Virus genome (UHGV): UHGV-0868109
Reading direction: 5' to 3' (one strand)
DNA from: a virus
DNA: 38,226 nucleotides
The translations under genes were made by a program, and so were the position numbers. The notes beneath the pieces were generated by a model that saw only the letters and a list, made by a program, of their open reading frames with translations, was not told the DNA's origin and ran no database searches. Each line of letters begins with the position of its first letter. Position 1 is the first letter of the stretch. Of the stretch, positions 1 to 34,760 are shown piece by piece.

Positions 1-209
1 TCTCCGCTTACCCATGCATCTCCGTATACCCGTGCATCTCCGCTTACCCATGCATTTCCGTATACCCGTGCATTTTCGCTTACCCGTGCATTTCCGTATA
101 CCCGTGCATTTCCGTATACCCGTGCATTTCCATATACCTGTGCATCTCCGTATACCTGTGCATTTCCGCACACCCGTGCATTTCCGTATACCCATGCATT
201 TCCGCTTTG
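1..209. repeat. Tandem 18-bp repeat (consensus CCCGTGCATTTCCGTATA), at least 11 copies, continuing past the window start
   Basis: Direct reading: units at 12-29, 30-47 and so on to 192-209 with minor variants. Both strands are open across the array (plus-strand ORF 14..214 gives HFRIPV repeats, minus strand gives YGNARV repeats). Confidence 0.9.
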
Positions 210-347
210 GTTGAGATTATCTTCTTTTTCCACGTATCCACCAAGATCGCCCTCTTCCACGTCTGAAAAGCTTTTCAAAGCCTTGATCCGGTGGAGTATT
301 CTGCCACCTACCGTAATAGTGTCATCTGTTAATTCATGTTTTTTCAT
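1..347 (-). CDS. Hexapeptide-repeat (left-handed beta-helix-like) protein, N-terminal part; the gene continues beyond position 1
   Basis: ATG at 347 preceded by AAGGAGAGGAGAAGG. Translation MKKHELTDDTITVGGRILHRIKALKSF...NQSGNAWVYGNARVCGNAQVYGDAQVYGNARVYGNARV with period-6 V-x-G-x-A-x repeats. No stop before the window edge. Confidence 0.6.
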   Translation of the reverse strand, partial: MKKHELTDDTITVGGRILHRIKALKSFSDVEEGDLGGYVEKEDNLNQSGNAWVYGNARVCGNAQVYGDAQVYGNARVYGNARVYGNARVSENARVYGNAWVSGDARVYGDAWVSG

Positions 348-363
348 TTTCCTTCTCCTCTCC

Positions 364-525
364 TTATATCTGCCCAAAAGCTACACAGCAGACCATCAGG
401 GCAATCGAAAAACCAATCACGAACCAAAAGGCTTTCTCAACGACCTTATCATATGTATCCGGCTGTCTTACCGGTCCTTTTGTCTGCTTTCTCTTCCTGA
501 TCTGAATTACCTTTAACTGCTCCAC
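364..525 (-). CDS. Small membrane protein (53 aa, GTG start)
   Basis: GTG at 525 preceded by AAAGGAGGTGAGAGAC. Product ...KAFWFVIGFSIALMVCCVAFGQI has one hydrophobic helix. It is below the ORF-track length cutoff. Confidence 0.4.
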   Translation of the reverse strand: MEQLKVIQIRKRKQTKGPVRQPDTYDKVVEKAFWFVIGFSIALMVCCVAFGQI

Positions 526-588
526 GTCTCTCACCTCCTTTAAGTTTGAGTACCATACATTTTTACATCATTCTCAAACCTGCACCTG

Positions 589-969
589 CTACACGGACTG
601 CTCACTCACTTCTCCCTCCATTTTTCTTACAAGCACCATTGCCTCCAGTGGATCATAAGCAGGAACATATTTTCTGCCTGCTCCCTCCAAATGCTTGAAA
701 AACCGGTTATAATCTGCATACACTGCCTTATCAATAAATCTTTCAATCAATGCACTTTCCGGGTATCTCCCGGATTTGATTTCTCTCCGGATTCCCTCTT
801 TCCTATTCTTCACAGTTCCCATTGACTGCCCGTACATATCACGGAAATAGGAAGTCTTGCCATACTGGTTGATGGGTTTCTTCTCTTCTTTGACTGCTTC
901 TGCTATCAGAGGAAGGATTTCATAAATATGTTCCAATTCTGCAATAGCTTGTGCTTTGGTCATTGGCAT
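589..969 (-). CDS. Hypothetical early protein (126 aa)
   Basis: ORF with GAGGTGA SD 7 nt upstream of the ATG at 969. Tightly packed with its neighbours. Confidence 0.55.
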   Translation of the reverse strand: MPMTKAQAIAELEHIYEILPLIAEAVKEEKKPINQYGKTSYFRDMYGQSMGTVKNRKEGIRREIKSGRYPESALIERFIDKAVYADYNRFFKHLEGAGRKYVPAYDPLEAMVLVRKMEGEVSEQSV

Positions 970-975
970 TCTGTA

Positions 976-1164
976 TCACCTCACTTTCTTAAACTCTTCG
1001 GTAGAAATAGCACTGTCTTTTACACTAACCTCCACCGTTTTGGGCGGCGAACCAATATATTGAATTGTACGTTCTACAATTTCCATCACGCATTCTCCAC
1101 AATGCGGGCAGTAATTTGCATTTTCCGGAAGATCATCAAAACACCTCGGGCAAATTTTTGTCAT
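976..1164 (-). CDS. Zinc-ribbon protein (CPRC...CPHC), about 62 aa
   Basis: ATG at 1164 with GAGGTGAGGAAG SD. Two CxxC pairs. The listed ORF starts three codons earlier at a GTG. Confidence 0.55.
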   Translation of the reverse strand: MTKICPRCFDDLPENANYCPHCGECVMEIVERTIQYIGSPPKTVEVSVKDSAISTEEFKKVR

Positions 1165-1336
1165 CTTCCTCACCTCGCTTTCTCTTCCTTTCAGTATCTC
1201 TGCATTGTTCCTGCTGCCTCAAGAGCAAGGTATTAGCATCCCTTGTCAACAGAATAATGTCCGGCAAATCAATTTGTTCCAAAATTGCCACCATATTGTT
1301 AATTTCCTGTCGTTTCTTTTTTTCAAGATCCAACAT
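1136..1336 (-). CDS. Hypothetical small protein; first gene of the lytic-side operon (start uncertain, 1336 or 1417)
   Basis: ORF 1136..1417. The internal ATG at 1336 has a GGGAGA SD and the 1417 start has none. No HTH recognised. Confidence 0.3.
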   Translation of the reverse strand: MLDLEKKKRQEINNMVAILEQIDLPDIILLTRDANTLLLRQQEQCRDTERKRKRGEEDDKNLPEVF

Positions 1337-1610
1337 GTAACATCTCCCTTCTGCTATAATATTGGTTGCGGACTGCAAATCGCCTCTTTGAAAGGAGGTG
1401 ATATATTGAAAATCCATAAAATTGTAAAATCGGATAAGCTCATCCGAAAATATGAAAAGTTCGGATATGAGCTTCTGTATTTTACTTACACGGGTAATGA
1501 CCTCTCCACAATGTCAGCCCATTTAGAAAAGGAACTTTAATGTTCCGGGTAACTATCAACCTTTCTCCAATGCAGTCCGCTGCTTTCTTAAGCAACTGTT
1601 TGTTGCTTGT

Positions 1611-1645
1611 GAGATTATAATATATCACAAAATCAATATTGTCAA
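1611..1645 (-). promoter_or_regulatory. Sigma-70-like promoter driving leftward (lytic-side) transcription
   Basis: On the minus strand: TTGACA (1645-1640), 17-nt spacer, TATTAT (1622-1617). Confidence 0.4.
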
Positions 1646-1655
1646 TCTCTTTTTC

Positions 1656-1693
1656 ATTGTTTATGAGATATTTTATTGTTTATGAGATATTTT
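1656..1693. promoter_or_regulatory. Perfect tandem 19-bp direct repeat ATTGTTTATGAGATATTTT x2 between the divergent promoters; candidate repressor operators
   Basis: 1656-1674 and 1675-1693 are identical and lie upstream of both -35 elements. Confidence 0.45.
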
Positions 1694-1696
1694 GTA

Positions 1697-1725
1697 TTGA
1701 CGAAAAATGTAACGCTGTGTATAAT
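1697..1725 (+). promoter_or_regulatory. Promoter of the CI-like repressor gene
   Basis: TTGACG (1697-1702), 17-nt spacer, extended -10 TGtTATAAT (1717-1725). Confidence 0.55.
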
Positions 1726-1753
1726 GTAAATCAAGAAAGGCGGTGAGCATTTT

Positions 1754-2140
1754 TTGAAAGATCGTTTAAAAAAATTACGCAAAGAATTAGATTTAACACA
1801 ACAAGCTTTTGCAGATAAAATAGGAATGAAGCAAAACACAATTGCTCAATATGAAATGGGTAGAACAACCCCTAGTGACGCAATTATATTTTCTATATGT
1901 AGAGAATTTGGAGTTAATGAGAAGTGGTTAAGATCTGGTGAAGGCGAAATGTTTGAGGAATTGACTGATCAGCAGAAAATTCTGAAATACACAGCATTAC
2001 TGCTCAAAGATAAAGATTCGGCTGTAGCAGACGCTATTCAAACATTAATTGTTACTTATGAGCAACTGGACGATACAAGTAAAGCAGTATTGGAAAAGAT
2101 TGCTAAGCAATATATTGATAACTTAAAAAAGAGCCAGTAA
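1754..2140 (+). CDS. CI-like XRE-family HTH repressor (128 aa, no S24 peptidase domain)
   Basis: TTG start with AAAGG/GGTGA SD. N-terminal LRKELDLTQQAFADKIGMKQNTIAQYEMGRTTPS is a classic XRE HTH. Divergent from the lytic-side promoter. Confidence 0.8.
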   Translation: MKDRLKKLRKELDLTQQAFADKIGMKQNTIAQYEMGRTTPSDAIIFSICREFGVNEKWLRSGEGEMFEELTDQQKILKYTALLLKDKDSAVADAIQTLIVTYEQLDDTSKAVLEKIAKQYIDNLKKSQ

Positions 2141-2157
2141 GCACTGACTCTCCATGA

Positions 2158-2280
2158 CTACTTCTCAATGTAACTTCGGATAAATACAAGTACTTCTCGT
2201 ATTTTTTCCGGAGATTGTTTTCGAAGCAATTCAACAATGAAGTCGATATCTTGTTGTTTTGTACAATTATCTTTTTCCAT
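2158..2280 (-). CDS. Small ORF (40 aa) downstream of the XRE gene, convergent with the repressor gene
   Basis: ATG at 2280 with GGAGG 8 nt upstream. Below the ORF-track cutoff. Function unknown. Confidence 0.3.
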   Translation of the reverse strand: MEKDNCTKQQDIDFIVELLRKQSPEKIREVLVFIRSYIEK

Positions 2281-2467
2281 ATGTATGACCTCCGTTCTCG
2301 TGCAGAACGCTTGTTCGAAATTCCTTAATCAGATAATACTACATTTCCTGTAGTAAATCAATAGGAAAATCGAACACACGTTCCATTTATTTGTTCCTAC
2401 ATTAATAGAACAATCGAGAACGGAAATACATACGGCATTTTAATCAATCGTCCGGTATACCGGACAC

Positions 2468-2665
2468 TTATTCAGAATCAGGATCAAAAAGGTCTGTAAT
2501 ATCACATTTCAGACCAACAGCAAGCTTTCCGAGCGTCCTGATTCGTGGATTAGAGTCTTCACGCATACATTCCTGTATGGTAGAACGTGGAACTCCTGAC
2601 ATTAAGGAAAGCTGACGTACAGATAGATTTTTTTCATACATGATTTTTTCTAATAATATTTTCAT
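2468..2665 (-). CDS. Small XRE-family HTH regulator (65 aa)
   Basis: LSVRQLSLMSGVPRSTIQECMRE HTH. Followed by a GTCCGGTATACCGGAC palindrome at 2449-2464. Confidence 0.7.
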   Translation of the reverse strand: MKILLEKIMYEKNLSVRQLSLMSGVPRSTIQECMREDSNPRIRTLGKLAVGLKCDITDLFDPDSE

Positions 2666-2773
2666 GCAATTAGTATTGGTAAATGTTTTAAAAATATATC
2701 TGTAAAATTATGGTATATTCGGCTTTGCCGTTTATATACGAAATCTTATGGTGTAACTAAAGGAACGGGGCAA

Positions 2774-3664
2774 ATGAGGAGGAAAAGTTTTATGAAAAAG
2801 ATTTTGACATTCCTTTTAATTGGAATGCTTATACTATCCTGCACAACTCTAACGGGATGTGGCAAAAAAGAAAGTTCAAAGACAGAATATACTATGGATG
2901 AGTTCGCTGATATGTATAACGAAACTCAATCGCTTTTTAAAAAAGAAGCTGAAAAAGCATACCTTACTGATGAGGAGCGTTATTCAGAAAAAGGACAACA
3001 GCTTTATAAAAAATGTTCCGAAAAGACTGGCTTGCCTTTTAACAAGGAGCTCACTCTTCGTGGTGTAAAATATCAGGGATACGGGTGCGTGGATTTGAAA
3101 TCCAATGACGAGAAAACCTCTATTCAATGCCTCTTTGCCCAGTCTGTTGATAACTTTTGGATATTAATACCTGACGGAACTACTGTTTCGATTAAAGGCA
3201 CTTTTTCACCAGAATCAGCTCCAGGAGCTTACGGAACACTATTTGATGTAAGTCTTGTATCTCCTGATATTGACATCAAATATGAACCCACAGACATTAA
3301 AGACGCATTAAAAGTAATCACTAATGAGCAAGGTTATGAGAGCAACATTATTATTGAGGGCGAAATTTCTGAAATCATGACCCGTGATGAAGTGGAAGAA
3401 ATAGTGGGCGGGTATGTTGATATCTCTTCTGCATTGCATGACGATGCCGCACTGATAAAGGGCGAGGATGGGAGTATTATTATCTTTTATGACAAAACCT
3501 TTACTGGTGAACTGACTGCCGGGGATAAAATAGCTGTTCAGGGAGCGTTGCAAAATGGATTCGGATATGAAAATCCTGCTACAAAAAAATATTCCTGCCT
3601 AATAGGTGTGATGCCTGATGTTGATGATTGCTACAACTTCACAGCACATCAAGACGATGAATAA
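2774..3664 (+). CDS. Secreted lipoprotein; candidate superinfection-exclusion protein (alternative start 2792)
   Basis: Signal peptide plus lipobox MKKILTFLLIGMLILSCTTLTGC. GAGGAGG SD before the ATG at 2792. Position between repressor and integrase. Confidence 0.7.
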   Translation: MRRKSFMKKILTFLLIGMLILSCTTLTGCGKKESSKTEYTMDEFADMYNETQSLFKKEAEKAYLTDEERYSEKGQQLYKKCSEKTGLPFNKELTLRGVKYQGYGCVDLKSNDEKTSIQCLFAQSVDNFWILIPDGTTVSIKGTFSPESAPGAYGTLFDVSLVSPDIDIKYEPTDIKDALKVITNEQGYESNIIIEGEISEIMTRDEVEEIVGGYVDISSALHDDAALIKGEDGSIIIFYDKTFTGELTAGDKIAVQGALQNGFGYENPATKKYSCLIGVMPDVDDCYNFTAHQDDE

Positions 3665-3672
3665 TTAAAAAA

Positions 3673-3696
3673 CCGCCCCTTCGCCAAAAGGAGCGG
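3673..3696. terminator. GC-rich hairpin (CCGCCCCTT...AAGGAGCGG) after an A-run; oriented as a minus-strand or bidirectional terminator
   Basis: Stem of 9 bp with one mismatch. The A8 run at 3665-3672 gives a U-tract only on the minus-strand transcript. Confidence 0.35.
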
Positions 3697-3855
3697 TACT
3701 GGAAGAAACACACGCCAATGTGCTTCTTTTGGTAACTCCGAAGAGATACACTAATGCCAATGAATATTGTATCATCTTCGGAGCAGTCACGCAAGAGAAC
3801 AACCGTTCTGTGCTGGCTGTTATTTTTATACTCAAAAACAGAAAGGAAGATGATT

Positions 3856-4950
3856 ATGTGGGTAGAAGAAAGAAAAACCGGATTCAAATTTGTTGAACGC
3901 TACACCGACCCAATGACAGGAAAGACCAGGAGGGTTTCTGTTGTAATGGAGAAAAATACGGCACAGTCGAGAAAGCTGGCTGCCGTTGCACTGTCTGAAA
4001 AGATTGACAAGGCACTGCTGCCACAGGTGGACAAGATCCGCTTGAAAGACCTGGTGGATCTATACAGAAAAGAACAGTTCCGAACGCTTAAGCAGTCAAC
4101 CTATCGCAGAAACAGTGCTGTGTGCAATACGCTAATGAAGATACTGGATCCTGAAATCTATGTTGACAAGCTCACCGCAGGTTACATCCGTGAGCGATTT
4201 CTCAATACTGGTCGGGAACACAGTACATTAAACGAATGGATGATTCGTCTAAAAGCTTTGCTTCGTTGGGGATATCGCAATGACTATATTAAAGACATAT
4301 CCTATCTCAACAAAATAGAAAGATTCAGCGATATTCCGCACCGCCAAAAGATTGAGGATAAGTTTCTTGAATCTGCCGAACTGAAAGAATTGCTCTCCGG
4401 CATGACAATTCTAAAATGGAAACTCCTTACCGAGTTCCTTGCACTATCCGGGTTGCGATTCGGTGAAGCCGCCGCTCTCACGAAGTCTGACGTTGACTTG
4501 AAAAACAGGAAAATCCACGTGACTAAAACCTACGACAGTGTGGCTGATATTACTACAACGCCCAAAACAGCCTGTTCCGTACGTGACGTATATATTCAGG
4601 ATGAATTGCTTACGGTTTGCAGAAACGTGCTTCTAGGCTGTCACAGCGGCACTGTAGTTTCAATCAGTAGCGTATTCTTTCCCGGTACAATCCGGGAGCA
4701 TATTGAATTTGATTGTTATGCAAAATATCTAAGGGAAACATCTCAGAGAGTTATTGGACGCAGGATCACGCCTCATACACTCAGGCACACTCACGCAAGT
4801 TTGCTGATGGAACAGGGAATTGATATTGATAGCATATCCAAAAGACTCGGACATAATGACAGCAGGATTACTAGAGAGATCTATCTGCACGTAACAAAGA
4901 AACTTGAAGAACAGAGAAATGCACAGATCAAAGAATTAAAAATTTTATAG
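3856..4950 (+). CDS. int: Tyrosine recombinase (phage integrase)
   Basis: N-terminal MWVEERKTGFKFVERYTDPMTGK. C-terminal HTLRHTHASLL...LGHNDSRITREIYLHV (R, HxxR and Y catalytic motifs). AGGAAG SD before the ATG at 3856. The listed ORF extends upstream to 3754. Confidence 0.9.
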   Translation: MWVEERKTGFKFVERYTDPMTGKTRRVSVVMEKNTAQSRKLAAVALSEKIDKALLPQVDKIRLKDLVDLYRKEQFRTLKQSTYRRNSAVCNTLMKILDPEIYVDKLTAGYIRERFLNTGREHSTLNEWMIRLKALLRWGYRNDYIKDISYLNKIERFSDIPHRQKIEDKFLESAELKELLSGMTILKWKLLTEFLALSGLRFGEAAALTKSDVDLKNRKIHVTKTYDSVADITTTPKTACSVRDVYIQDELLTVCRNVLLGCHSGTVVSISSVFFPGTIREHIEFDCYAKYLRETSQRVIGRRITPHTLRHTHASLLMEQGIDIDSISKRLGHNDSRITREIYLHVTKKLEEQRNAQIKELKIL

Positions 4951-5215
4951 TTTGCCCCCTTTATGCCCCCTTTTGACAATAAAAAATCTCTGAACCCCTT
5001 GCAAACACTGGATTTACAGGAGATTCAGAGATTCAGTCTAATGCCGCAGACCGGCTACCCTATATATATAAATAGGTATAAACACTGTAAGAATATTTGA
5101 TTTTCACAAATTTCTCACACATTTCAATGCAAGCAAATATAATAACTTGCCCCCTATTTGCCCCCGCTTGAGATGATACGATATTCAGCCCCGGAGTTAC
5201 TGCTCCGGGGTAATC
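4951..5215. other. Predicted attP region: two paired TGCCCCC direct-repeat sites flanking an AT-rich segment with a 9-bp inverted repeat
   Basis: TGCCCCC at 4953 and 4964, and again at 5148 and 5159, each pair 11 bp apart. ATCTCTGAA (4986-4994) and TTCAGAGAT (5024-5032). Lies immediately 3' of int. Confidence 0.35.
5189..5210. terminator. Stem-loop CCCCGGAG-ttactg-CTCCGGGG between convergent int and accessory transcription units
   Basis: Perfect 8-bp GC-rich stem. Weak T-richness follows on the plus strand. Confidence 0.35.
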
Positions 5216-5527
5216 TTATTCCCTTGTGGCATTTGCTTTGTTCTTTCCGATTTCGAGATACAATATCATCTCTTGTGGCATTTGCTTTTTTATCATCTCC
5301 CCCATTTCTTCTATTGTGATCAGATCCATGAGTTCCATCATCTTCCTGTTTAATTTTTCCGGTATTCCTAACGCCACCGCTCTCGGATAGATCATCACAA
5401 GGCACTTCATCGGATATCTGTCTGATATCCAGTTATACGGATCGTGGACACCTCCGTTTAATACTTGCAGTGTTCGCTGATATATTTCTCCGATCAATTC
5501 CACTTTTTCCCTTGTATACATAGCCAT
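5216..5527 (-). CDS. Hypothetical accessory protein (103 aa)
   Basis: ORF 6 nt downstream of the preceding gene, probably co-transcribed from duplicated promoter copy A. Confidence 0.5.
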   Translation of the reverse strand: MAMYTREKVELIGEIYQRTLQVLNGGVHDPYNWISDRYPMKCLVMIYPRAVALGIPEKLNRKMMELMDLITIEEMGEMIKKQMPQEMILYLEIGKNKANATRE

Positions 5528-5532
5528 TCACC

Positions 5533-6036
5533 TCACTTTGTCCAGTTTTCTTTCATTTCAATCACATCTTTCATTACCGTTTCCGGTACGTCTTTCATTT
5601 TTTTTAATTCTTCCTCTGTGTATCCCATCTTGTTAAGTTCTCTTGCTATCATTACCGGTGTTACTTCTTCCGGCTTTGCATTTTCGTTTTCTCCCTTCAG
5701 TTCTTCCAGTGCTGCATTCAGAGCTTTTCCAAACACTTCCCGCGAATCCTCTTCTTTTTCATCCTGTTTAGGAATGTAGACAACGATGGTTTTTTCTTCC
5801 TTGTCATAGCTTCCTGATTTTGTTTTACAGTCTGCATAGTTCTCTTTGTATTCGCTGTATTTCATTTCTACTTCTTCACAGTTTTCTGCTTTTTCTTCGT
5901 TCATTTTCTTTTTATAGCATTCTGGGCAGAGTCCGCTTTTTCCGAAATATTTAATCTTTCTTTCACGTTCTTCTGCTTTTCCGTAGATCTGTACTTCTTG
6001 TGTGTGTCCACAGCTAAACGTTACATCGTACTTCAT
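5533..6036 (-). CDS. Acidic protein with an N-terminal zinc ribbon (167 aa)
   Basis: CGH...CPEC motif and a Glu/Lys-rich tail. AAAGGAG SD before the ATG. Confidence 0.55.
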   Translation of the reverse strand: MKYDVTFSCGHTQEVQIYGKAEERERKIKYFGKSGLCPECYKKKMNEEKAENCEEVEMKYSEYKENYADCKTKSGSYDKEEKTIVVYIPKQDEKEEDSREVFGKALNAALEELKGENENAKPEEVTPVMIARELNKMGYTEEELKKMKDVPETVMKDVIEMKENWTK

Positions 6037-19886: not shown

Positions 19887-20867
19887 TTATTCTCCCGCTT
19901 TCAGGATCGCAAACGGGCATCTCTTGGTCTTATCTTTTGCAAGAGCATTGATTGGATTCGGGATTTCCCATCCAAGACGCATCACCGCACGAAGAGCAAT
20001 CATATCATTCTGCATCAGGTTGTATGCGATAGTTCCATCGGTGTTCTGAATCACACCTTCCGTGAATAACTTGAATGTAATATCCTGTCTGATGGAATAT
20101 ACAAGCTGAGAGAAGTCTCCTGAAATCATCAGTGCCTTTGATTTGTCAAACGCTCCGTTGTTTGGGAAATTCATCGGAGAGCCATCTAAAGCATACTGCG
20201 TTGTTCCCTGCAGATCCTGTTTGAACAGCGGATCACCATTCGCATTTTTCAATCCCCTGAGCTTTGCCCTCATGGAGATATCTGCCATGTGACCATTTAC
20301 AAAGTAGCCAGATCCCTCAACTTTCGCAATGACGCCATCTTCTGCCATAATCTTGTCGTACAGACTGTCAGATGCTCCGAGTGTTACGACTGCACTCGCC
20401 TTTGTTGCAGTTGCAACCACATCTTCTCTCCATGTTGACGGCTTATTTTCTCCAAAAAGTACCGCTCCATCAATGACTTTTCCAAATGCTTCTGTCACTC
20501 TTGGCCTTACTTCTGCCCAGATATCATATTCCGAATCATCCAATACAGCTTCTGGAACCGGAACAATTACCGCAATTTCTTCCGCAGTGATAAACTTCTT
20601 GTCCCATGCCTGCTTTGCCGTTTTTTTCTGTCCATTGTCGCCATTTACAAAATAAGCGATCGGCAGCATATCCAATACCGGCATCTTGTACTGCTTACTG
20701 GTCATATTTGCAAGCTTACGCCCTCTCGAAAGGACTGCCGACTGTGCGATTGTTCCCTGAATAATCTCGCTTGCTTCCTGCACCGGGATTAAAGACTCCG
20801 CTCCGGTACGATCGATAATGCTTACGTCATTATCAAAAATTCTTAAATTCATTCTGTTTCTGTTCAT
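19887..20867 (-). CDS. Major capsid protein (HK97 fold)
   Basis: 326 aa with GGAGGT SD. MISGDFSQLVYSIRQDITFKLF and LRAVMRLGW motifs. Follows the scaffold. Confidence 0.85.
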   Translation of the reverse strand: MNRNRMNLRIFDNDVSIIDRTGAESLIPVQEASEIIQGTIAQSAVLSRGRKLANMTSKQYKMPVLDMLPIAYFVNGDNGQKKTAKQAWDKKFITAEEIAVIVPVPEAVLDDSEYDIWAEVRPRVTEAFGKVIDGAVLFGENKPSTWREDVVATATKASAVVTLGASDSLYDKIMAEDGVIAKVEGSGYFVNGHMADISMRAKLRGLKNANGDPLFKQDLQGTTQYALDGSPMNFPNNGAFDKSKALMISGDFSQLVYSIRQDITFKLFTEGVIQNTDGTIAYNLMQNDMIALRAVMRLGWEIPNPINALAKDKTKRCPFAILKAGE

Positions 20868-20879
20868 CTTCTACCTCCA

Positions 20880-21485
20880 TCATCTTCTTGCTGCAGCACG
20901 GATACGTTCATTGATAGAAGCATTCATGCTTCCACCGGCTCCCTCCGAAGAGCTTCCTGAAGACGTAGACACCCGATACGTGCCACTGCCTGTATATTTC
21001 GGATTTTCTTTCAAATACTGTTCTGCAGCTTTTTCAAATGTTGTCTTGTCGTTTACAAGTTTCGATACCTTGAACATGACATAATCAAGATCCTCTGTCT
21101 TCACACCTTTACCTGACAGAAATTTCTCATTTTTCATCTGCTGAACTTCCTTCAAAGCGTCATCACGTTCTTTCTGCAGCTTTGCCGTGTCCGGCTGATT
21201 TGCCGCACGTTCTGCCTTGAATTTTGTGATTGCTTCTGTGACTTCTCCCTCTGTCATTCCCTGACCACGGAAAAAGCTTGCAAGAGCTGCACGTTCCGAC
21301 TTGCTTGCCCTGGCACTTGCAATTTCTTCCAGCTGTTCATAGGTATAAGTTCCGGAATTGGAAGCTCCGGATGTGCTTCCAGCGGATTCCCCACCGCCGT
21401 TCCCATTCCCGGCATTTCCACCCTGTCCACCAGAGCCAGCTCCGCTGCCGTCCTCGAAAAGCTGTAACATCATTCTTTTTCTCAT
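20880..21485 (-). CDS. Capsid scaffolding protein
   Basis: Gly-rich N-terminus, acidic coiled-coil centre, position immediately before the capsid gene. Confidence 0.75.
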   Translation of the reverse strand: MRKRMMLQLFEDGSGAGSGGQGGNAGNGNGGGESAGSTSGASNSGTYTYEQLEEIASARASKSERAALASFFRGQGMTEGEVTEAITKFKAERAANQPDTAKLQKERDDALKEVQQMKNEKFLSGKGVKTEDLDYVMFKVSKLVNDKTTFEKAAEQYLKENPKYTGSGTYRVSTSSGSSSEGAGGSMNASINERIRAAARR

Positions 21486-21541
21486 TGTCTACCTCCGTTT
21501 ATGCTTCGTTGAGCTCCCGAGCTTTTAACGCCTTCACGTTT

Positions 21542-21571
21542 TGGGCAAAAGAAAAACACCCCTCAGGGTGT
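21542..21571 (-). terminator. Hairpin plus U-tract between Prp and the scaffold gene (attenuator or processing site)
   Basis: Minus transcript ACACCC-ugag-GGGUGU then UUUUCUUUUG. Confidence 0.4.
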
Positions 21572-21574
21572 CTC

Positions 21575-21862
21575 CTACAAAAATGTTATACAATTATATT
21601 CCCGGTTGATATCTGTTAACCCGAGAAACCACGAATCCAGCAGCAACTTCCCTCTGTCAGAAAGCTGCTCCCATTCGATCACGGTTCTTCCGCTCCCGGT
21701 ATCTGCCCTGATCCGGTCACCTGTCAGATCATTCAGCGAATTGATCAGGTTGCAGGTGAGAGCGGATACAGCTGCACATGCCCGGTCAATACCGTCTGAC
21801 CCTTTTCGGCAGGCATGACCGGTCATGTGTATGCTGTTCGGTGTTATGGTTATCTCAATCAC
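21575..21862 (-). CDS. prp: Prp-like ribosomal-processing cysteine protease homologue (probable scaffold/capsid processing protease)
   Basis: MIEITITPNSIHMTGHACRKGSDGIDRACAAVSALTCNLINSL matches the Prp/DUF464 His-Cys core. GAGGAGGTGA SD. Confidence 0.7.
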   Translation of the reverse strand: MIEITITPNSIHMTGHACRKGSDGIDRACAAVSALTCNLINSLNDLTGDRIRADTGSGRTVIEWEQLSDRGKLLLDSWFLGLTDINREYNCITFL

Positions 21863-21974
21863 TGGATCACCTCCTCTTGAGCCACGTTATAATTACTATC
21901 AGAATCCCATATAGAACAGCCGCCATTTCAACCGCTGTTCTCCATTCAAAATACAACTTCATCCTATTTTTCTC

Positions 21975-22007
21975 CATAAAAATACCACCGGTCAATATGA
22001 CTGGTGG
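21975..22007 (-). terminator. Rho-independent terminator after the small Cys-rich ORF
   Basis: Minus transcript CCACCAGUC-auauu-GACCGGUGG then UAUUUUUAU. Confidence 0.6.
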
Positions 22008-22010
22008 CAG

Positions 22011-22166
22011 TTATTCCATTTCTTTAAATTTAATTCCGTTTTTGCACTCCTCTTCATAACCAGAAAAAATTACATCCTCCGGTATTCCGTCTGGAAATGC
22101 TTTACAAGTCATCTCTTCACTGTTTTCATTGAAATTACTGCACAGCATACACTTTGGTAATGTCAT
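22011..22166 (-). CDS. Small Cys-rich protein (51 aa); candidate immunity protein for the MuF C-terminal domain
   Basis: ATG at 22166 with GGAGGG SD 6 nt upstream, 1 nt after the MuF stop. MTLPKCMLCSNF...TCKAF...ECKNG. Followed by a terminator. Confidence 0.45.
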   Translation of the reverse strand: MTLPKCMLCSNFNENSEEMTCKAFPDGIPEDVIFSGYEEECKNGIKFKEME

Positions 22167-22167
22167 T

Positions 22168-23886
22168 CTAAACCCTCCGCCAATGAAGGATATATTTTCC
22201 GATAAGTTTTCTTGCTTCATCTGGTATGTCTTCTCCATTTCTATATTTAACAAAGGCTTCTGCTAGGCTTTCTCTTCCATCCCTGCATTTATCGGAATAA
22301 CCAGATATTCCAGGAATAAATTTGTTTTTTATTTCTTGCAATTTCTTTGCATAATCAACTTCCCCGACACAGTTCTGGAACGGAATTATATGCGCCGTCT
22401 CATGTGCAATATAATCTTCAAAATTCTTTCCTGCCATATAGCCCTTTTTATACATAATAGCCATTCGTTTTTCAATCTTATTATAGTCTATATTATAGTT
22501 AAATACAATTTCATGTTTCAGCATCCCATCATCATCTATATATCCGCCAGTAACGAAAATATCACCTTTTTTTAGTTTCCCACCGTTTATGGAATCTAAA
22601 TAAATCACATATTCTGAATCCAGCTTCTTTATTGCTTCATTGATTTTCGATTCAATTTCTTTACTTAATCTCGCTTCCTTGGAAACTGTACTTGGAATGG
22701 AAATTCTCATCTTTGAATCATACTGACTCGGTGCCACTCTTCCGCGCCCATCTATATAAATTCTCTCTCTTTCTTCCTTAAGTCCCATCTTACGAGAAAA
22801 TACCGCATATTCATTGAGCTGTCCTTGATATTTTGCTTTTTGGAGCATTACTTCCTGCGGATCAGCCCCGCCCTCTTTCAGGAGCTGCACCTTTTCACGC
22901 TGTGCCCGCATAGCAGTTTCCATTTGACGCTGTCTTTGCTTTGCTTCATACAGTGTATATTCTTTACCACGGAACTCGGTCGGCTCGCTTTCTTTCCGAT
23001 TCTGCTCGTCTAGCCAGTCATCCGTATAAGCTCGTACCGATACACCGGGAACAAAAGGGAAATAGGTATGGTAGCAGTTTGCTCCACACAGTCCGGTTAC
23101 TGTACCGAGTCCACAGACATCATACAGCTGCTGTTGACTCCATACTCTACCCTGCCATATCGTATGCGTTGGCCTTGCTCCTGCGTGCCATTCCACCTCA
23201 AAAAACTCCGTACCGAGCTTTTCTGCATTATATTCCGCAATCTTCCCGGAAAACTGTGTAAGCCCGGTCATAACCGCCCGTCTTGCCGCAACCTCGATCC
23301 GGTTTGCATACCCCGATGAATATTCGATCTGCCGGAGTCCACTATTTGTAAGCTGAGTGACTACCCGCCTAAGAACTGCATTATAATCAAACGCTCCTGT
23401 CACAATGTCCATGCAGGCATTATCAAGATACCCACTGTATACCTGCGACAATGGAGTTAATACCTTTCTGCCGCCATAATCCAAATAAAAGCCCAGAGAT
23501 CTTGTTATATTTTCCAAGTCCTCAAGGCTTTGCTTTTTGATAGCTGATGTCACCTGTATCAGATGTTCATTTTCTTCAAAAGGTATGTATTCCGCATTGA
23601 TCTGTTCATAGACGTCCTTGTTCCTGACATATTCCCAGTTAATTACTTTGTCATACAGCTCAAACATTTCCGGGTAAGAAGTGTTCAGAGTGTCTTTCAA
23701 TGCATTCTCAATGTCCTCCGAAGAATACCCCAGTATTTTTAACCGGTTAATCTGCCAGTCTGCTGTGCTGGTGATCTCGCCCGTCTTTTTGATTCTCCGA
23801 ACAATATCCTGCATGATCCTGACTTCAAGATCTGCGTATCTTGCCGCAATCTTGCTGGCGATCTTTTCCTTATATTCATTTCTCAT
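22168..23886 (-). CDS. MuF/SPP1 gp7-family minor head protein fused to a C-terminal HExxH zincin-like domain
   Basis: WHAGARPTHTIWQGRVW MuF motif at about aa 230-250. After a coiled-coil linker, the C-terminal ~170 aa carry YIAHETAHIIPF (HExxH). Confidence 0.85.
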   Translation of the reverse strand: MRNEYKEKIASKIAARYADLEVRIMQDIVRRIKKTGEITSTADWQINRLKILGYSSEDIENALKDTLNTSYPEMFELYDKVINWEYVRNKDVYEQINAEYIPFEENEHLIQVTSAIKKQSLEDLENITRSLGFYLDYGGRKVLTPLSQVYSGYLDNACMDIVTGAFDYNAVLRRVVTQLTNSGLRQIEYSSGYANRIEVAARRAVMTGLTQFSGKIAEYNAEKLGTEFFEVEWHAGARPTHTIWQGRVWSQQQLYDVCGLGTVTGLCGANCYHTYFPFVPGVSVRAYTDDWLDEQNRKESEPTEFRGKEYTLYEAKQRQRQMETAMRAQREKVQLLKEGGADPQEVMLQKAKYQGQLNEYAVFSRKMGLKEERERIYIDGRGRVAPSQYDSKMRISIPSTVSKEARLSKEIESKINEAIKKLDSEYVIYLDSINGGKLKKGDIFVTGGYIDDDGMLKHEIVFNYNIDYNKIEKRMAIMYKKGYMAGKNFEDYIAHETAHIIPFQNCVGEVDYAKKLQEIKNKFIPGISGYSDKCRDGRESLAEAFVKYRNGEDIPDEARKLIGKYILHWRRV

Positions 23887-23887
23887 A

Positions 23888-25303
23888 TCACTCCATCACC
23901 TGATTTTGCTCGGGAAGATTCTGACGAGCCTGCTCAACCGTTTCTCCATACCACTTTGCCCGATATTCTTCCTGCCTCATCACGCCCATGCTCACATCCT
24001 GCCGATCCTGCTGACGTTCCGAATCCTTATCCTCAATGATGGAATCATCAAAATCTATCGTGATTTCTGTATCAGGATCCAGTACATTCCCCGTGACCTG
24101 ACCAAGCCGGATAATAATTCTGATTAATCTTTTTAACACGTCTTCCAGGATAATTTCATGCTTTTTCAGCATCCGGTACATGTCCGAATTTTCGGAAATG
24201 ATCTCGGTCGCAGTCTTTGCTCCTGCCCCGTCAAACCGGTATCTTTCCGTACCGAACCCGCATTTCAGAGACAGATAATTCAGATCATCATTGATTGCTT
24301 TGCTGTGCTGTTCTACCCGTAGACTCATGTCTACTTCTTTGATCAGGCCTGTCTGGCTCTTATCGTAATCTTCCGGAAGCGAATAGAATACACTGTCATC
24401 TGGATCAAAGGTCGGGGATCCGTCCTCATTCGTCAACATTTCCGGAGCGACAAAAATTCTCTTTCTTCCCAGATCAAACTCATTGCAATAAGAATCATAC
24501 TCCATGTCCAGCTTTTTAAGTGTATCGATGGCATTTGCGAAAATCGCAATTCCCATCGGATTGCACTCATCGGCATTGTTTGTGATATTTAGCCTGTCAA
24601 TGACAAATTGTGGCTCTGCGAACCCTGTCTCTGTTCTGGCTGCCAGATTTGCAAATGGCTTCAGCTTTTTCCATTCCTGTTCTGTCAGCTCACGCCCTTC
24701 TGCACTGCCTTTTATACATTCCAGGACACTGTTCTCAATCACATATACTCCGCCTGACTCAATTCTGTGAAATTGAATCTGCACGTATTTCTTCTGACGG
24801 ACCGTATGCACGAATGTAAAAATACATTCCGTGACTTCTCCATTATTCCAGCTGATCGGATAGATGTTCTTGGCATCCACATAGTTGATTCCGATCTCAC
24901 CTGCAGATATCATCCCATCTTCCTGCACAGCAGCATTGTACAAGTAAGGGATATACGCAACGGTTCCGGAATACGCTTTTCGTTCCTGGTAGTCATTTCC
25001 CATAACCAGAAAATGATTGTTATCCAGAACTTTCTGCACAAATTCCTGTGTCTTTTCATCTTCCAGTGTGATCATAACTCTTTCGTTTAGGAGCAGATCT
25101 GCAATGTCTTCTGACAGCTTCTTCGCCATCCCCATGCTCTTCCTACGGCATCGCTTGCTTGTTCCACGTCCGGTATACACCTTGTAGTACGTAAACTGCC
25201 GAACATTTGAATTGTACCAGCTGCTCCACTCATCAATCTTCCGGTAGAACGAAGCATCCACTGTGTCTATTCCCGCTTTCCTGAAATAACTAAAAATATT
25301 CAC
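23888..25303 (-). CDS. Portal protein (SPP1 gp6-type)
   Basis: 471 aa, located between TerL and MuF, with an acidic C-terminal tail. Confidence 0.85.
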   Translation of the reverse strand: MNIFSYFRKAGIDTVDASFYRKIDEWSSWYNSNVRQFTYYKVYTGRGTSKRCRRKSMGMAKKLSEDIADLLLNERVMITLEDEKTQEFVQKVLDNNHFLVMGNDYQERKAYSGTVAYIPYLYNAAVQEDGMISAGEIGINYVDAKNIYPISWNNGEVTECIFTFVHTVRQKKYVQIQFHRIESGGVYVIENSVLECIKGSAEGRELTEQEWKKLKPFANLAARTETGFAEPQFVIDRLNITNNADECNPMGIAIFANAIDTLKKLDMEYDSYCNEFDLGRKRIFVAPEMLTNEDGSPTFDPDDSVFYSLPEDYDKSQTGLIKEVDMSLRVEQHSKAINDDLNYLSLKCGFGTERYRFDGAGAKTATEIISENSDMYRMLKKHEIILEDVLKRLIRIIIRLGQVTGNVLDPDTEITIDFDDSIIEDKDSERQQDRQDVSMGVMRQEEYRAKWYGETVEQARQNLPEQNQVME

Positions 25304-26661
25304 CTTTCATCACCTCCTTCATCTATTGGCAGCCAATGCTTTATCCTGCTCCATGCTCCCATCACTGCGTACCGGATCGCATCCATGCAGTGATCATCCA
25401 TTTTTACTGGCACTTCCTTACCTCTTTCAATAGATTTTTTATCATATTCATAAGTTCCAAATTCTCGGTCTGCGTTCTCCTGACTGGGATCAATCGACAT
25501 TACTTCAAACGAAAGTGCTTTTTGCACTCTGCTAATGCCAAGAGCAACATCATTTTCCGCATCCCGCAGAAGCACCTGATAGTCCAGTCCGGTTCTGGTG
25601 GCTCTCTTAACCTCTTCTGCCAGACCTTTTGCGGACGGATCCAGAAAAATATAAAAGATCCGGTTCTCATACTGTTCATGCAGCATATCCATGAACTCAA
25701 CCAGATCTCTTGCATACTCGGACGGGCTCTTCTGCCTTCCAGATTCCCGCCCACTGTGATAATATTCTCCAAGTCCGGGGAATTTCTTGCGGTAGGTGTC
25801 TAGACCAAACGATTCAAAGGTTGTCGCATTCTGCTGACCGTAGTCACCTCCAATGTAAATCCGGTCATATCTCCTGTCCGGATCCGGCTTCTGCCTGTGG
25901 CGATTGCCATACATATAGTAGATCAATTCGTCCACACCGATCGCCTCGCCTAGCCAAACCCATCTATACATTTTTGGATCAGATTTCTTCATAGCTTCAG
26001 CAGATGCGATCAGGTCAGGTCCCAGCCATTCCACCGGCACGTCCCGGTAATCTGTATGAATATGGATGCAGTCCTCTCGCTTTTCCATCTTCTTGCACCA
26101 CAAATTGATGGGGGCATTCGGATTCTTTGGAGGATTATAGAGATAGATCATCTGAAATCCCCCTTTATTTCCACGAACGAACGTCGCTTCAATATTGGTC
26201 AGTTCATCTTCTCCCTCTCCATCGTCAAAAAACTCTGTCAGCTCATCCAGCACAACCAACTTGATTGGCTTATCTTCATCAATGATACCTTTTGTATCAT
26301 CGATCCCGTCTGACCCAGCAAAATACATTGTCGTCCCATGCTTTTTATATGTTATTTCCATCGGGGATTTTGTAATCAGGAATTTACTTTTGGGAATTTC
26401 CAACCGATTGATCCCCCTTAGCATTTCTTTGTAGACTGTTTTTCTCAGCTTATTATGGTGTTTTCTTAAAACAACAACCGATCCATTCGCATCTGATACA
26501 AGCTGATAATCCGATCTTACCGCTGCGTAGCTCGACTTCGTTCCGGCTCTTCCGGAAGTCAGTATAATGTGCTTAATATGCCGATTATTAAATATCGGCA
26601 GGTATTTCGGGATTATTATCTCCGATATCTTCACTTGCTTCTTTCGGTGCGTCATTGACAA
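25300..26661 (-). CDS. terL: Terminase large subunit
   Basis: Walker A ILTSGRAGTKS, Walker B LVVLDE, C-terminal nuclease acidic residues. 453 aa. Confidence 0.9.
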   Translation of the reverse strand: MSMTHRKKQVKISEIIIPKYLPIFNNRHIKHIILTSGRAGTKSSYAAVRSDYQLVSDANGSVVVLRKHHNKLRKTVYKEMLRGINRLEIPKSKFLITKSPMEITYKKHGTTMYFAGSDGIDDTKGIIDEDKPIKLVVLDELTEFFDDGEGEDELTNIEATFVRGNKGGFQMIYLYNPPKNPNAPINLWCKKMEKREDCIHIHTDYRDVPVEWLGPDLIASAEAMKKSDPKMYRWVWLGEAIGVDELIYYMYGNRHRQKPDPDRRYDRIYIGGDYGQQNATTFESFGLDTYRKKFPGLGEYYHSGRESGRQKSPSEYARDLVEFMDMLHEQYENRIFYIFLDPSAKGLAEEVKRATRTGLDYQVLLRDAENDVALGISRVQKALSFEVMSIDPSQENADREFGTYEYDKKSIERGKEVPVKMDDHCMDAIRYAVMGAWSRIKHWLPIDEGGDER

Positions 26662-32912: not shown

Positions 32913-34760
32913 CTATTTAAACGGCAATTCTTCTTGATCCGCTGGACTGAATCCATCAGAATCCATCGCACTGTCCAGCTTCAGCCACACGCACCGCACC
33001 GCTTTTTTACCCATTTTTTTATTTTTGGTCTGATTCTTCCCGTCCGTCTGAAGCAGTCCGTTCTTATCCGCCCAGTTCATGAAAGCTTTATAAGAATAGC
33101 TGCCACTTTCGCAGAGATCCTTTACTGCCTGAATGTACATGATTGCATATCCCTGGTCGATAATTCCCCACTGCTCTACATTTACAGCCGCATCAAACCG
33201 CTGGCTATTCATACTGATCTTGTCAAGCAGATACCGGTAGCATCGTTCATGCTCTGACACTTCTGACTGGCTCGCAAGAACCTTTTTTGCACTTTCTAAG
33301 TCGATATATCCGCCATCACAAAAGATCCGGTCCGTAGCGATCCGATCGGCTGTCAGGATCACAGACAGGGCTATACTCTGCTTCTGCATGGCATCATCCC
33401 TGTAAATTTCCTTTTGGATCTCTGCCTGCATTTCTCTGATCTGATCCACACCGATCTCTTTTATCGCTTTTACAAATTCTTTCCCCGCAAAACCGTAATT
33501 CTTTTTCAAGAAATTAGCGGTATACTGTGGATCCGCAAAAACCTTTTCTCCGCATTCTACTTCAATGATACGGTTAATTGCACCGCCTTGGGTGACATAA
33601 GAACTTAACGGACGCTCTCCATTCGTCAGAATTGCATTCTTCCACCGATTCTCCTTTCGGATTCCCAGCTCTCTATTTGACCGGCTCTTTCCTTTTCCGG
33701 AACAGAGATCATATACAACCCCCTCGAAGTTATCTTTAATCCTGGCATTGACCTTGCTTGAATCATCCAGCATCAGCGGGAGATTGTTGAGCAGATCAGA
33801 CCGCACCTCCAGCTGCACGTCCGTGGTCTTAAAATCACCGATATACATACTGTCTGCTGGATTCGCCCAAACAGACGCTGCCAGCATCATAGCAACCGTC
33901 TTTCCGCCTTCTGTCTCGCCCCACAGGTCCACGATAAACGGAAGTGCTCCCAGTAATCCGACCAGGACACTGGCAAAGGATGCTGCGAGGAAAAACTTGA
34001 TTTCCATCCGGTCACGTTTCCGAAGTTCGCAGACATGATTCAACCATTCCATATAGCTTCCTTGCTGCCGGATACTTTCATACAACTGCTTGAACTGCAG
34101 ATCTCCATCAAAGAGGATGTCCGTATCGTATGGTATAAAATCTCCACCAATCCATCCCAGCTTTGACGTAGATTTCTGCAATGGGATATCATTATCATTC
34201 AAATTTTCTACATCCGACAGGTATTTAACCAACAGCTTCGCATTCTCCGAAGTTACGGAAACACCAAGCTTTGACAGACTCACAATTTTGCTGGCAGAAG
34301 ATATGATGTCTTTCGGTACCGTAATCTCTGTCCAACGGTGATTCCGCTTGTATGCCAGCTTGATTTGTTCCTCTCCCGTCTCGAGATTTTTTAAACGTCC
34401 GATCGGCAGGATTGGGTGATAGCAGACAATAACCTCGTTGTCGTAATCCTTGTTAAATGTCCTGATCCCGTCGTCTCCTGCAATCCACGACCCACATTTT
34501 ACAGCATCGTATTTTCCCGTAAAATCTGTCCAGTTGGTTAAGGCATTACTGCTCAACCTTTTTTTATTCATTTCCTGCTCGACCTTTTTATAAGCTTTGA
34601 TCATCATGTCAAACCCCTGCTTTACCCCCAGCTCCTTTGCACGCTCCTGAAAAGAAAGCAGCATCTGTGCCTTTTTTATTTCGTCCTCCTGTTCAAAGAT
34701 TTCCGTAAAAACCTCTTCTGCAAGGATACTTTTTTTATCGTATTCACTTAACTTTTTCAT
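32913..34760 (-). CDS. Replicative SF3/P4-type helicase (DUF927/VirE-like)
   Basis: Walker A DLWGETEGGKTVA, Walker B LPLMLDD. 615 aa. Confidence 0.75.
   Translation of the reverse strand: MKKLSEYDKKSILAEEVFTEIFEQEDEIKKAQMLLSFQERAKELGVKQGFDMMIKAYKKVEQEMNKKRLSSNALTNWTDFTGKYDAVKCGSWIAGDDGIRTFNKDYDNEVIVCYHPILPIGRLKNLETGEEQIKLAYKRNHRWTEITVPKDIISSASKIVSLSKLGVSVTSENAKLLVKYLSDVENLNDNDIPLQKSTSKLGWIGGDFIPYDTDILFDGDLQFKQLYESIRQQGSYMEWLNHVCELRKRDRMEIKFFLAASFASVLVGLLGALPFIVDLWGETEGGKTVAMMLAASVWANPADSMYIGDFKTTDVQLEVRSDLLNNLPLMLDDSSKVNARIKDNFEGVVYDLCSGKGKSRSNRELGIRKENRWKNAILTNGERPLSSYVTQGGAINRIIEVECGEKVFADPQYTANFLKKNYGFAGKEFVKAIKEIGVDQIREMQAEIQKEIYRDDAMQKQSIALSVILTADRIATDRIFCDGGYIDLESAKKVLASQSEVSEHERCYRYLLDKISMNSQRFDAAVNVEQWGIIDQGYAIMYIQAVKDLCESGSYSYKAFMNWADKNGLLQTDGKNQTKNKKMGKKAVRCVWLKLDSAMDSDGFSPADQEELPFK

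Follow-up and report, generated by a model that had tools for sequence, protein, structure and literature searches.

In the virus genome UHGV-0868109 (38,226 nucleotides (nt); 'the window' below means this whole stretch of DNA), we identified a gene pair that probably constitutes a polymorphic effector cassette of the MuF type, belonging to a temperate siphovirus that infects Lachnospiraceae or Ruminococcaceae of the gut. Its parts would be a carrier, a peptidase and an inhibitor, with the capsid as the predicted delivery vehicle. The first gene encodes a 572-amino-acid (aa) protein in which a MuF2 head-morphogenesis domain leads into a C-terminal domain of the zincin type; the second, a Cys-rich open reading frame (ORF) of 51 aa, follows directly (Table 1). 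The case is built on domain identities, the predicted fold, invariant catalytic residues, tail polymorphism among close relatives, linkage of the small ORF to the zincin, and orphan cassettes.

The 572-aa ORF reported in a preliminary description of this DNA was found at 22168-23886 on the minus strand, with the strings quoted from it in place (WHAGARPTHTIWQGRVW beginning at residue 233 and YIAHETAHIIPF at residue 492). Its assignment to MuF stood in part: a MuF domain is present at residues 2-360, but it is PF06152 and not PF04233. Jamet et al. 2017 (PMC5576092) named PF06152 MuF2 and grouped it with PF04233 in one superfamily. The 'coiled-coil linker' placed at about residues 300-360 had to be given up, as this region falls within the PF06152 profile; the true junction is IYIDGRGRVAPSQYDSK (376-392), after which the tails diverge.

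Beyond the junction, HETAH occupies residues 495-499. Conservation was assessed in 88 family members at ≤50% identity plus the window sequence, 89 in all: H495, E496, H499, Y530 and E539 were conserved in 89/89 and E543 in 88/89, and the alignment of relatives had an invariant HExxH and an invariant (D)G.ESLAEAF block. The HExxH motif noticed earlier is thus genuine, both by this invariance and by the zincin fold of the domain model. The Glu ligands proposed with it, in GEVDY (E509) and QEIKN (E518), turned out to be variable among homologues; invariance among acidic residues falls instead on E539 and E543 of RESLAEAF, a block preceded by the invariant Y530, and the third zinc ligand likely lies there. 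Because the catalytic residues are invariant in 89 divergent sequences, we argue that the zincin is an active enzyme. In the 88 representative proteins, the domain ends 0-21 residues from the C-terminus.

An AlphaFold2 model of the domain on the family alignment (pLDDT 91.3, pTM 0.87) has a zincin layout, with three strands followed by helices bearing the HExxH and the Glu-rich motif. Residues 393-572 had no match in Pfam (none at E≤1), NCBIfam or PDB sequences, PDB sequence searches with the full protein and both family profiles returned spurious matches alone (dynein light chain, WDHD1), and Foldseek of the domain against the PDB gave nothing below E 0.4. A Foldseek search of predicted viral structures retrieved this domain from uncultured siphoviruses, in proteins labelled 'minor capsid proteins' (TM 0.84-0.90); weaker matches were phage proteins annotated as 'Lethal factor' and 'endopeptidase family M34'. 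Comparison by hhalign with PF07737-positive tails of sister phages gave a low-probability alignment (21%, E 0.001) that laid HExxH over HExxH and ISGYAD..GRESLAEAF over ISEYAYKNEREFFAECF (ISEYA..EREFFAECF of ATLF-type tails). On this alignment and model we class the domain as a gluzincin that would work like the M34 peptidases; it is probably distantly related to them and is not a demonstrable PF07737 member.

An exhaustive profile search of 1.84 billion representatives recovered 208 zincin clusters at 50% identity, with gut Clostridia (Dorea, Lachnoclostridium, Lachnospiraceae, Ruminococcaceae) as hosts of the family. All of the long members tested (10/10) carry MuF1 or MuF2, the same zincin also occurring on PF04233-type MuF1 proteins. 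A tblastn search of 50,697 GenBank phage records with the zincin gave no match, placing the domain in none of their cultured phages, and megablast of 21500-25400 against the same records was likewise empty. Two members had a second payload between MuF1 and the zincin: an ADP-ribosyltransferase-like (ART-like) region in P0285 (758 aa; weak PF03496/PF01129 matches) and a SprT-like region in P0150 (919 aa; weak match).

The proposal that the C-terminal domain swaps among MuF homologues was borne out in a set of 80 IMG/VR loci that share 77-96% identity with the window in the MuF2 core. Tails were examined in 77: 15 loci carry the zincin, 2 are cut inside it by contig ends, and 60 have other tails or none, so that the zincin is not a structural domain of all close MuF homologues. 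These cores bear at least eight unrelated tails counting the zincin, the 60 non-zincin loci having at least seven (an ATLF peptidase, a toxin-deaminase and five unknowns) or being tail-less. Besides the zincin of the window type (15 loci; no Pfam model), we found tails of unknown annotation of 180 aa (23 loci), 199 aa (10 loci), 178 aa (2 loci) and 191 aa (1 locus), a 175-aa tail with HEFKH (5 loci), a 257-258-aa tail matching PF07737 ATLF (14 loci; E 1.8e-6, above gathering score), a 241-aa PF14424 toxin-deaminase tail (2 loci; E 4e-20) and tail-less or 'short' MuFs ending in 22-32 aa (2 loci). Identities of carrier and payload were discordant, a MuF of 87-92% being paired with a zincin of 45% and a MuF of 43% with a zincin of 69%. 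The 191-aa tail (L166) and a 158-aa product of locus L062 (2375-2851) both contain H-N-H-P-S-x6-S-x-A-D, a JAMM/MPN+ likeness seen by eye and not supported by Pfam.

The small ORF travels with the zincin. Its ATG (22166-22164) lies one base past the zincin stop TAG (22170-22168), and its GGAGGG Shine-Dalgarno is inside the zincin's conserved W-R-R codons; both the spacing and this ribosome-binding site had been described correctly, and relatives show the same arrangement. Among 100 loci with a full zincin match it was within 80 nt of the zincin in 98, the other two ending at a contig edge; among the close MuF2 relatives it was present in 15/15 zincin loci and in 0/60 loci with other tails, confirming that the downstream ORF is conserved and tied to the zincin. 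All seven alternative tails examined (7/7) have their own unrelated, translationally coupled small ORF, and tail-less MuFs lack one. Divergence of the zincin and of the small ORF was correlated (r = 0.66, Mantel 0/5000). Tail polymorphism, co-occurrence and a separate partner for each tail were all as predicted by the earlier interpretation of a MuF polymorphic tail with a partner gene, and in these comparisons they speak for it.

Homologues of the small ORF fall into 2,203 clusters (90% identity); each of the 120 members listed is a stand-alone protein of 46-117 aa. C6, C9, C21 and P29 are invariant and P25 invariant or nearly so, a fourth Cys or His is usually present, and the family has an invariant AFPxGIP loop. 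Searches gave only a sub-threshold HPIP_like hit in Pfam (E 0.011), no match in NCBIfam or the PDB and no match to a known immunity-family profile; phrog_33375, of unknown function, was matched at E 2.5e-5. A structural model (pLDDT 72; one hairpin and two short helices) was of moderate quality and was not used for fold assignment. In many relatives (L021, L023, L031, L037, L043, L053, L005) no ATG, GTG or TTG stands beside the conserved LPKC of the small ORF; in these the +1 frame is open over the last ~25 zincin codons, with upstream ATGs made by conserved zincin codons. We considered a programmed +1 frameshift that would join zincin and small domain in one protein, and rejected it: the frame relation varies by lineage (+1, -1, TAATG overlaps), there is no conserved slippery site, and none of the 88 representative proteins is a natural in-frame fusion with a ~50-aa small domain.

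At the 3' edge of the cassette, the terminator noted earlier held up as a plausible intrinsic one, a hairpin and U-run (AUUUUUAU) folding at -16.1 kcal/mol (z = -2.96). A scan for the strict terminator consensus did not call it, because of a 1x1 internal loop. Translated, the hairpin reads MTGGIF, which recurs behind unrelated cassettes. So does the 36-aa mini-ORF that follows, which therefore belongs to the conserved sequence that borders the variable region on its 3' side. This mini-ORF has one hydrophobic helix (consensus MEKNRMKLYFEWRTAVEMAxVLYGILIVII...) and starts at the hairpin's U-run; homologues lie at 1951-2106 and 4134-4304 of L062 and at 4877-5032 of L098.

Cassettes also occur away from an intact carrier. 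In L062 (IMGVR_UViG_3300014963_000790, 75-5695), three orphan cassettes come after a complete MuF2 gene that bears the 175-aa HEFKH tail and has a partner ORF of 106 aa. All three are headed by a MuF gene fragment (residues 363-387, 151-255 and 187-375), and the last consists of a zincin with its Cys ORF. L065, L068, L070 and L071 have the same type of arrangement, which is also that of orphan cdiA-CT and rhs-CT modules. A MuF1 fragment, zincin and small ORF are stranded in a bacterial chromosome (L005-L007 6001-6994; >20 contigs), adjoining cas1/cas2/cas4/cas7/csd1 genes, and an orphan 60-aa homologue of the small ORF sits among metabolic genes with no zincin detectable nearby (L089 4001-4183; L090 442-624).

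From these observations we infer enzymatic activity, inhibition by the small protein, packaging with injection, and a target in the host. MuF2 residues 1-375 would be the constant 'delivery' part, and the payload after the junction (IYIDGRGRVA...) an exchangeable 180-aa domain, predicted to be an active gluzincin endopeptidase with a distant kinship to M34 (anthrax lethal factor/Pro-Pro endopeptidase). Zinc would be bound by H495, H499 and E539, with E496 as general base and Y530 as oxyanion stabiliser. The translationally coupled 51-aa gene is predicted to yield a zinc-stabilised mini-protein with a Cys3-Cys/His site, which would bind the peptidase and keep it blocked in the producing cell, and so act as inhibitor or immunity protein; this role is suggested by where the gene lies, by how strictly it is linked to the zincin and by the precedent of IapK and other validated MuF immunity proteins (PMC12226406). 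A few copies of the fusion may be built into the capsid at the portal, as in SPP1 gp7 and other MuF proteins, and may be carried into the next host along with the DNA; there, free of its inhibitor, the peptidase would cut a host protein in the cytoplasm. Packaging and injection are proposed here by analogy with SPP1 gp7 and Mu F, whose biology is cited in PMC5576092 and PMC5512222.

Several observations weigh against such a toxin-immunity cassette. In split variants the zincin gene is separate from MuF: in L001-L004 the Gln388 codon CAG has become TAG (L001 5986-6003) and the zincin restarts at the conserved Met393, and in L174 (2029-3537) an independent split leaves a MuF1 of 321 aa and a zincin of 178 aa. 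Covalent attachment is thus not always retained; the small ORF is kept in both splits. Recoding of the in-frame TAG of L001 as Gln was considered and set aside, that locus giving no further sign of recoding. Small ORFs have at times been swapped between zincin subtypes (zincins 69-76% identical, partners 35-39%), and on these identities the linkage is looser than in many toxin-immunity pairs. The small gene is also part of the late operon, in which it is coupled to the zincin, and its promoter-like sites are not above shuffled background. This last feature would suit a peptidase injected with the DNA in the service of the infecting phage, as a counter-defence or host-takeover effector that cleaves a host defence or regulatory protein and not as an interbacterial 'toxin'; the small protein would then be a packaging-stage inhibitor or chaperone and no population-level immunity factor. 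We regard this as a possible reading: the slot between the MuF cassette and Prp in relatives holds anti-defence-type genes such as Tad2-like, related architectures join the zincin to ART or SprT-like domains in the manner of 'polyvalent' injected proteins (PMC5512222), and Jamet et al. suggest that low-toxicity peptidase tails may modulate the outcome of infection (PMC5576092). The cassette shuffles, however, with true toxin domains (the toxin-deaminase) and with orphan arrays, as is typical of toxin/immunity diversification, and chromosomal orphan small ORFs fit an immunity role. A toxin and an infection-promoting or anti-defence tool overlap as readings, and we give the latter substantial weight.

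A more speculative reading, offered only tentatively, makes the 51-aa Cys3-Cys/His protein a new class of miniature zinc-stabilised gluzincin inhibitor, the capsid-delivered peptidase a cleaver of a host defence or regulatory protein at DNA entry, and the chromosomal orphans bacterial antidotes; the AFPxGIP loop might then be a pseudo-substrate for a Pro-directed, PPEP-like active site. That the small ORF instead encodes a subunit without which the peptidase is not activated, its zinc chaperone, or a hitch-hiking small regulatory zinc-ribbon protein, seems doubtful. It is itself a predicted metal binder (invariant CxxC..C), linkage alone fits inhibitor and activator alike, and the swaps between subtypes show partners to be partly interchangeable; yet its position matches that of the distinct small ORFs after every other tail type, the deaminase toxin included, and this is where an immunity gene canonically lies; orphan copies are kept in places that have no zincin, and its absence wherever the zincin is absent argues against hitch-hiking. 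A role for the zincin as a morphogenetic or processing protease that cuts MuF, scaffold or capsid during head maturation, with the Cys protein as cofactor, is unlikely. Its gene does lie within the head-assembly module, Met393 at the domain boundary is highly conserved with split versions starting exactly there, and zincin-like peptidases have been proposed to process multidomain phage proteins (PMC5512222). Relatives with MuF 77-96% identical and the same portal, Prp, scaffold and capsid genes nevertheless lack the domain or are tail-less, so the zincin is dispensable for assembly; a dedicated Prp-like gene just downstream, likely the maturation protease, and the Prp-type leader shared by scaffold and capsid point to the same dispensability for morphogenesis. 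Least probable is a catalytically dead zincin fold serving protein-protein contacts in the capsid. Dead zincin folds, of which the PA-binding N-domain of lethal factor is an example, lose the HExxH/Tyr/Glu catalytic residues, whereas here HExxH, Y530 and E539 are 100% conserved in the 89 sequences.

The cassette sits in a siphovirus-type late module on the minus strand, in the order terminase, portal, MuF fusion, 51-aa ORF, hairpin, 36-aa ORF, Prp-like protease, scaffold-like protein, capsid and, farther along, a 1,380-aa tape-measure protein (Table 1). Portal stop and MuF ATG are 1 nt apart. The presence of a tyrosine integrase makes the element temperate.

Table 1 Features of the cassette and its genome context in the window.
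Feature	Position	Strand	Basis or remark
Large terminase	25300-26661	(-)	PF04466/PF17288
SPP1-type portal gene, directly 5' of the MuF gene	23888-25303	(-)	PF05133 SPP1_portal, E 4.3e-24
MuF2-zincin fusion ORF, 572 aa + stop	22168-23886	(-)	PF06152; phrog_581 minor head protein, E 2.5e-105
MuF2 (Phage_min_cap2) head-morphogenesis domain, residues 2-360	22807-23883	(-)	Pfam PF06152, E 3e-106
Conserved junction IYIDGRGRVAPSQYDSK, residues 376-392	22711-22761	(-)	IY(I/L)D..G..A in all tail classes
Zincin (M34-like gluzincin) putative effector domain, 180 aa, residues 393-572	22171-22710	(-)	
HETAH zinc-binding/catalytic motif, H495 E496 H499	22390-22404	(-)	Invariant in 89/89 divergent members
Y530 ... 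E539-S-L-A-E543-A-F, predicted catalytic Tyr and third zinc ligand helix	22252-22299	(-)	Conservation; hhalign
GGAGGG Shine-Dalgarno of the small ORF	22173-22178	(-)	6 nt upstream of ATG
51-aa Cys mini-protein ORF, predicted cognate inhibitor/immunity	22011-22166	(-)	Start ATG 22166-22164
Hairpin (21983-22009) and U-run (21975-21982), plausible intrinsic terminator	21975-22009	(-)	Folding
36-aa predicted membrane mini-ORF (MEKNRMKLYFEW...)	21867-21977	(-)	Conserved flank, outside the variable cassette
Prp-like cysteine protease, likely capsid-maturation protease	21575-21862	(-)	NCBIfam Prp, E 1.2e-9, below cut-off
Scaffold-like protein (MRKRMMLQLFED...)	20880-21485	(-)	
HK97-fold major capsid protein (MNRNRMNLRIFDND...)	19887-20867	(-)	PF05065
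Tyrosine integrase	3754-4950	(+)	

In relatives, PF04327 is recorded for the genes syntenic with the Prp-like protease. The scaffold-like and major capsid proteins have in common an N-terminal leader, MxRxRMxLxxF[ED], which we take to resemble the L27-type Prp cleavage motif of Staphylococcus phage 80alpha. The replication module encodes a 615-aa protein with DUF927 and Cch-HTH (primase/helicase-like; 32913-34760, minus strand). In phages with the MuF1-zincin form, accessory genes lie between the cassette and Prp/scaffold (L083-L088 4200-5300; L174 3750-4950), among them thioredoxin, a retropepsin-like Asp_protease_2, a Tad2-like gene (anti-Thoeris family) and DUF6275, which suggests that this slot is an accessory or anti-defence hot spot.

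The preliminary description held that the combination may be unreported. As a class it had already been published (PMC5576092); the zincin family and its Cys4 partner appear undescribed: neither Pfam nor NCBIfam has a model for them, no annotated PHROG covers them and the literature gave no match, the metallopeptidase models of PMC5576092 not being part of the comparison. Temperate phages of the gut abound in MuF polymorphic toxins, and our analysis defines among these a discrete zincin family (208 clusters) with an obligate 51-aa partner, mainly in human-gut Lachnospiraceae phages and prophages. To our knowledge, (p)ppApp-synthetase tails are the only MuF tails that have been characterised, and we know of no MuF peptidase tail that has been tested experimentally. 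The pair is small and cloneable, which would make it possible to test directly if active proteases are delivered by phage heads, and it offers a route to the host target and possibly a new minimal protease-inhibitor scaffold. It overturns no concept; rather, it fills one 'unknown C-terminal extension' box within an established framework.

Within that framework, Zhang et al. 2012 (PMC3482391) had listed MuF among the scaffolds that deliver toxins, MuF toxins combining a metallopeptidase tail with a small ORF downstream made up 20% of 191 MuF toxins (PMC5576092), and Apk2/IapK are validated toxin/immunity pairs (PMC12226406). As in the MuF polymorphic toxins of Jamet et al., the gene stands right behind the portal gene in a temperate phage and encodes an N-terminal MuF-superfamily domain, here PF06152; its C-terminal domain differs between close relatives and has its slot in common with PF14424 and PF07737, and a tail-specific small ORF (<150 aa) lies immediately downstream. 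The window differs in a tail that matches no Pfam, NCBIfam or toxin-domain model and in a 51-aa Cys-rich partner from a family that appears undescribed.

With the M34/PF07737 ATLF peptidases (anthrax lethal factor; PPEP-1/2/3) the zincin has in common an HExxH, an invariant Tyr and then ExxAExF, which is ESLAEAF here and EFFAEAF in anthrax lethal factor, and it occupies the slot in which close MuF2 relatives carry a genuine PF07737 tail. Unlike them, it has no significant PF07737 sequence match, is smaller than ATLF-type tails (180 aa) without their ~50-residue insert between the two catalytic helices, and would be a phage-borne, cytoplasmic enzyme and not a secreted toxin. The zincin-like metallopeptidases of polyvalent proteins (Iyer et al. 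2017, PMC5512222) likewise place a zincin fold on virion-delivered proteins, as is predicted for the window, and rare members of our family join MuF, ART-like or SprT-like domains and the zincin. Here, in contrast, the zincin is normally the sole payload, has a dedicated partner gene and forms a swappable terminal cassette, as opposed to an internal processing module.

Protein inhibitors encoded beside their metallopeptidase are exemplified by the serralysin inhibitor Inh. Imm-SuFu, found with ALF-metallopeptidase toxins, is another adjacent inhibitor (Zhang et al. 2012, PMC3482391). As in both, the small gene of the window is adjacent to and co-inherited with a zincin that its product is predicted to neutralise in the producer; it has no sequence or detectable structural relation to either, the predicted inhibitor here being a 51-aa metal-binding knuckle with an AFPxGIP loop.

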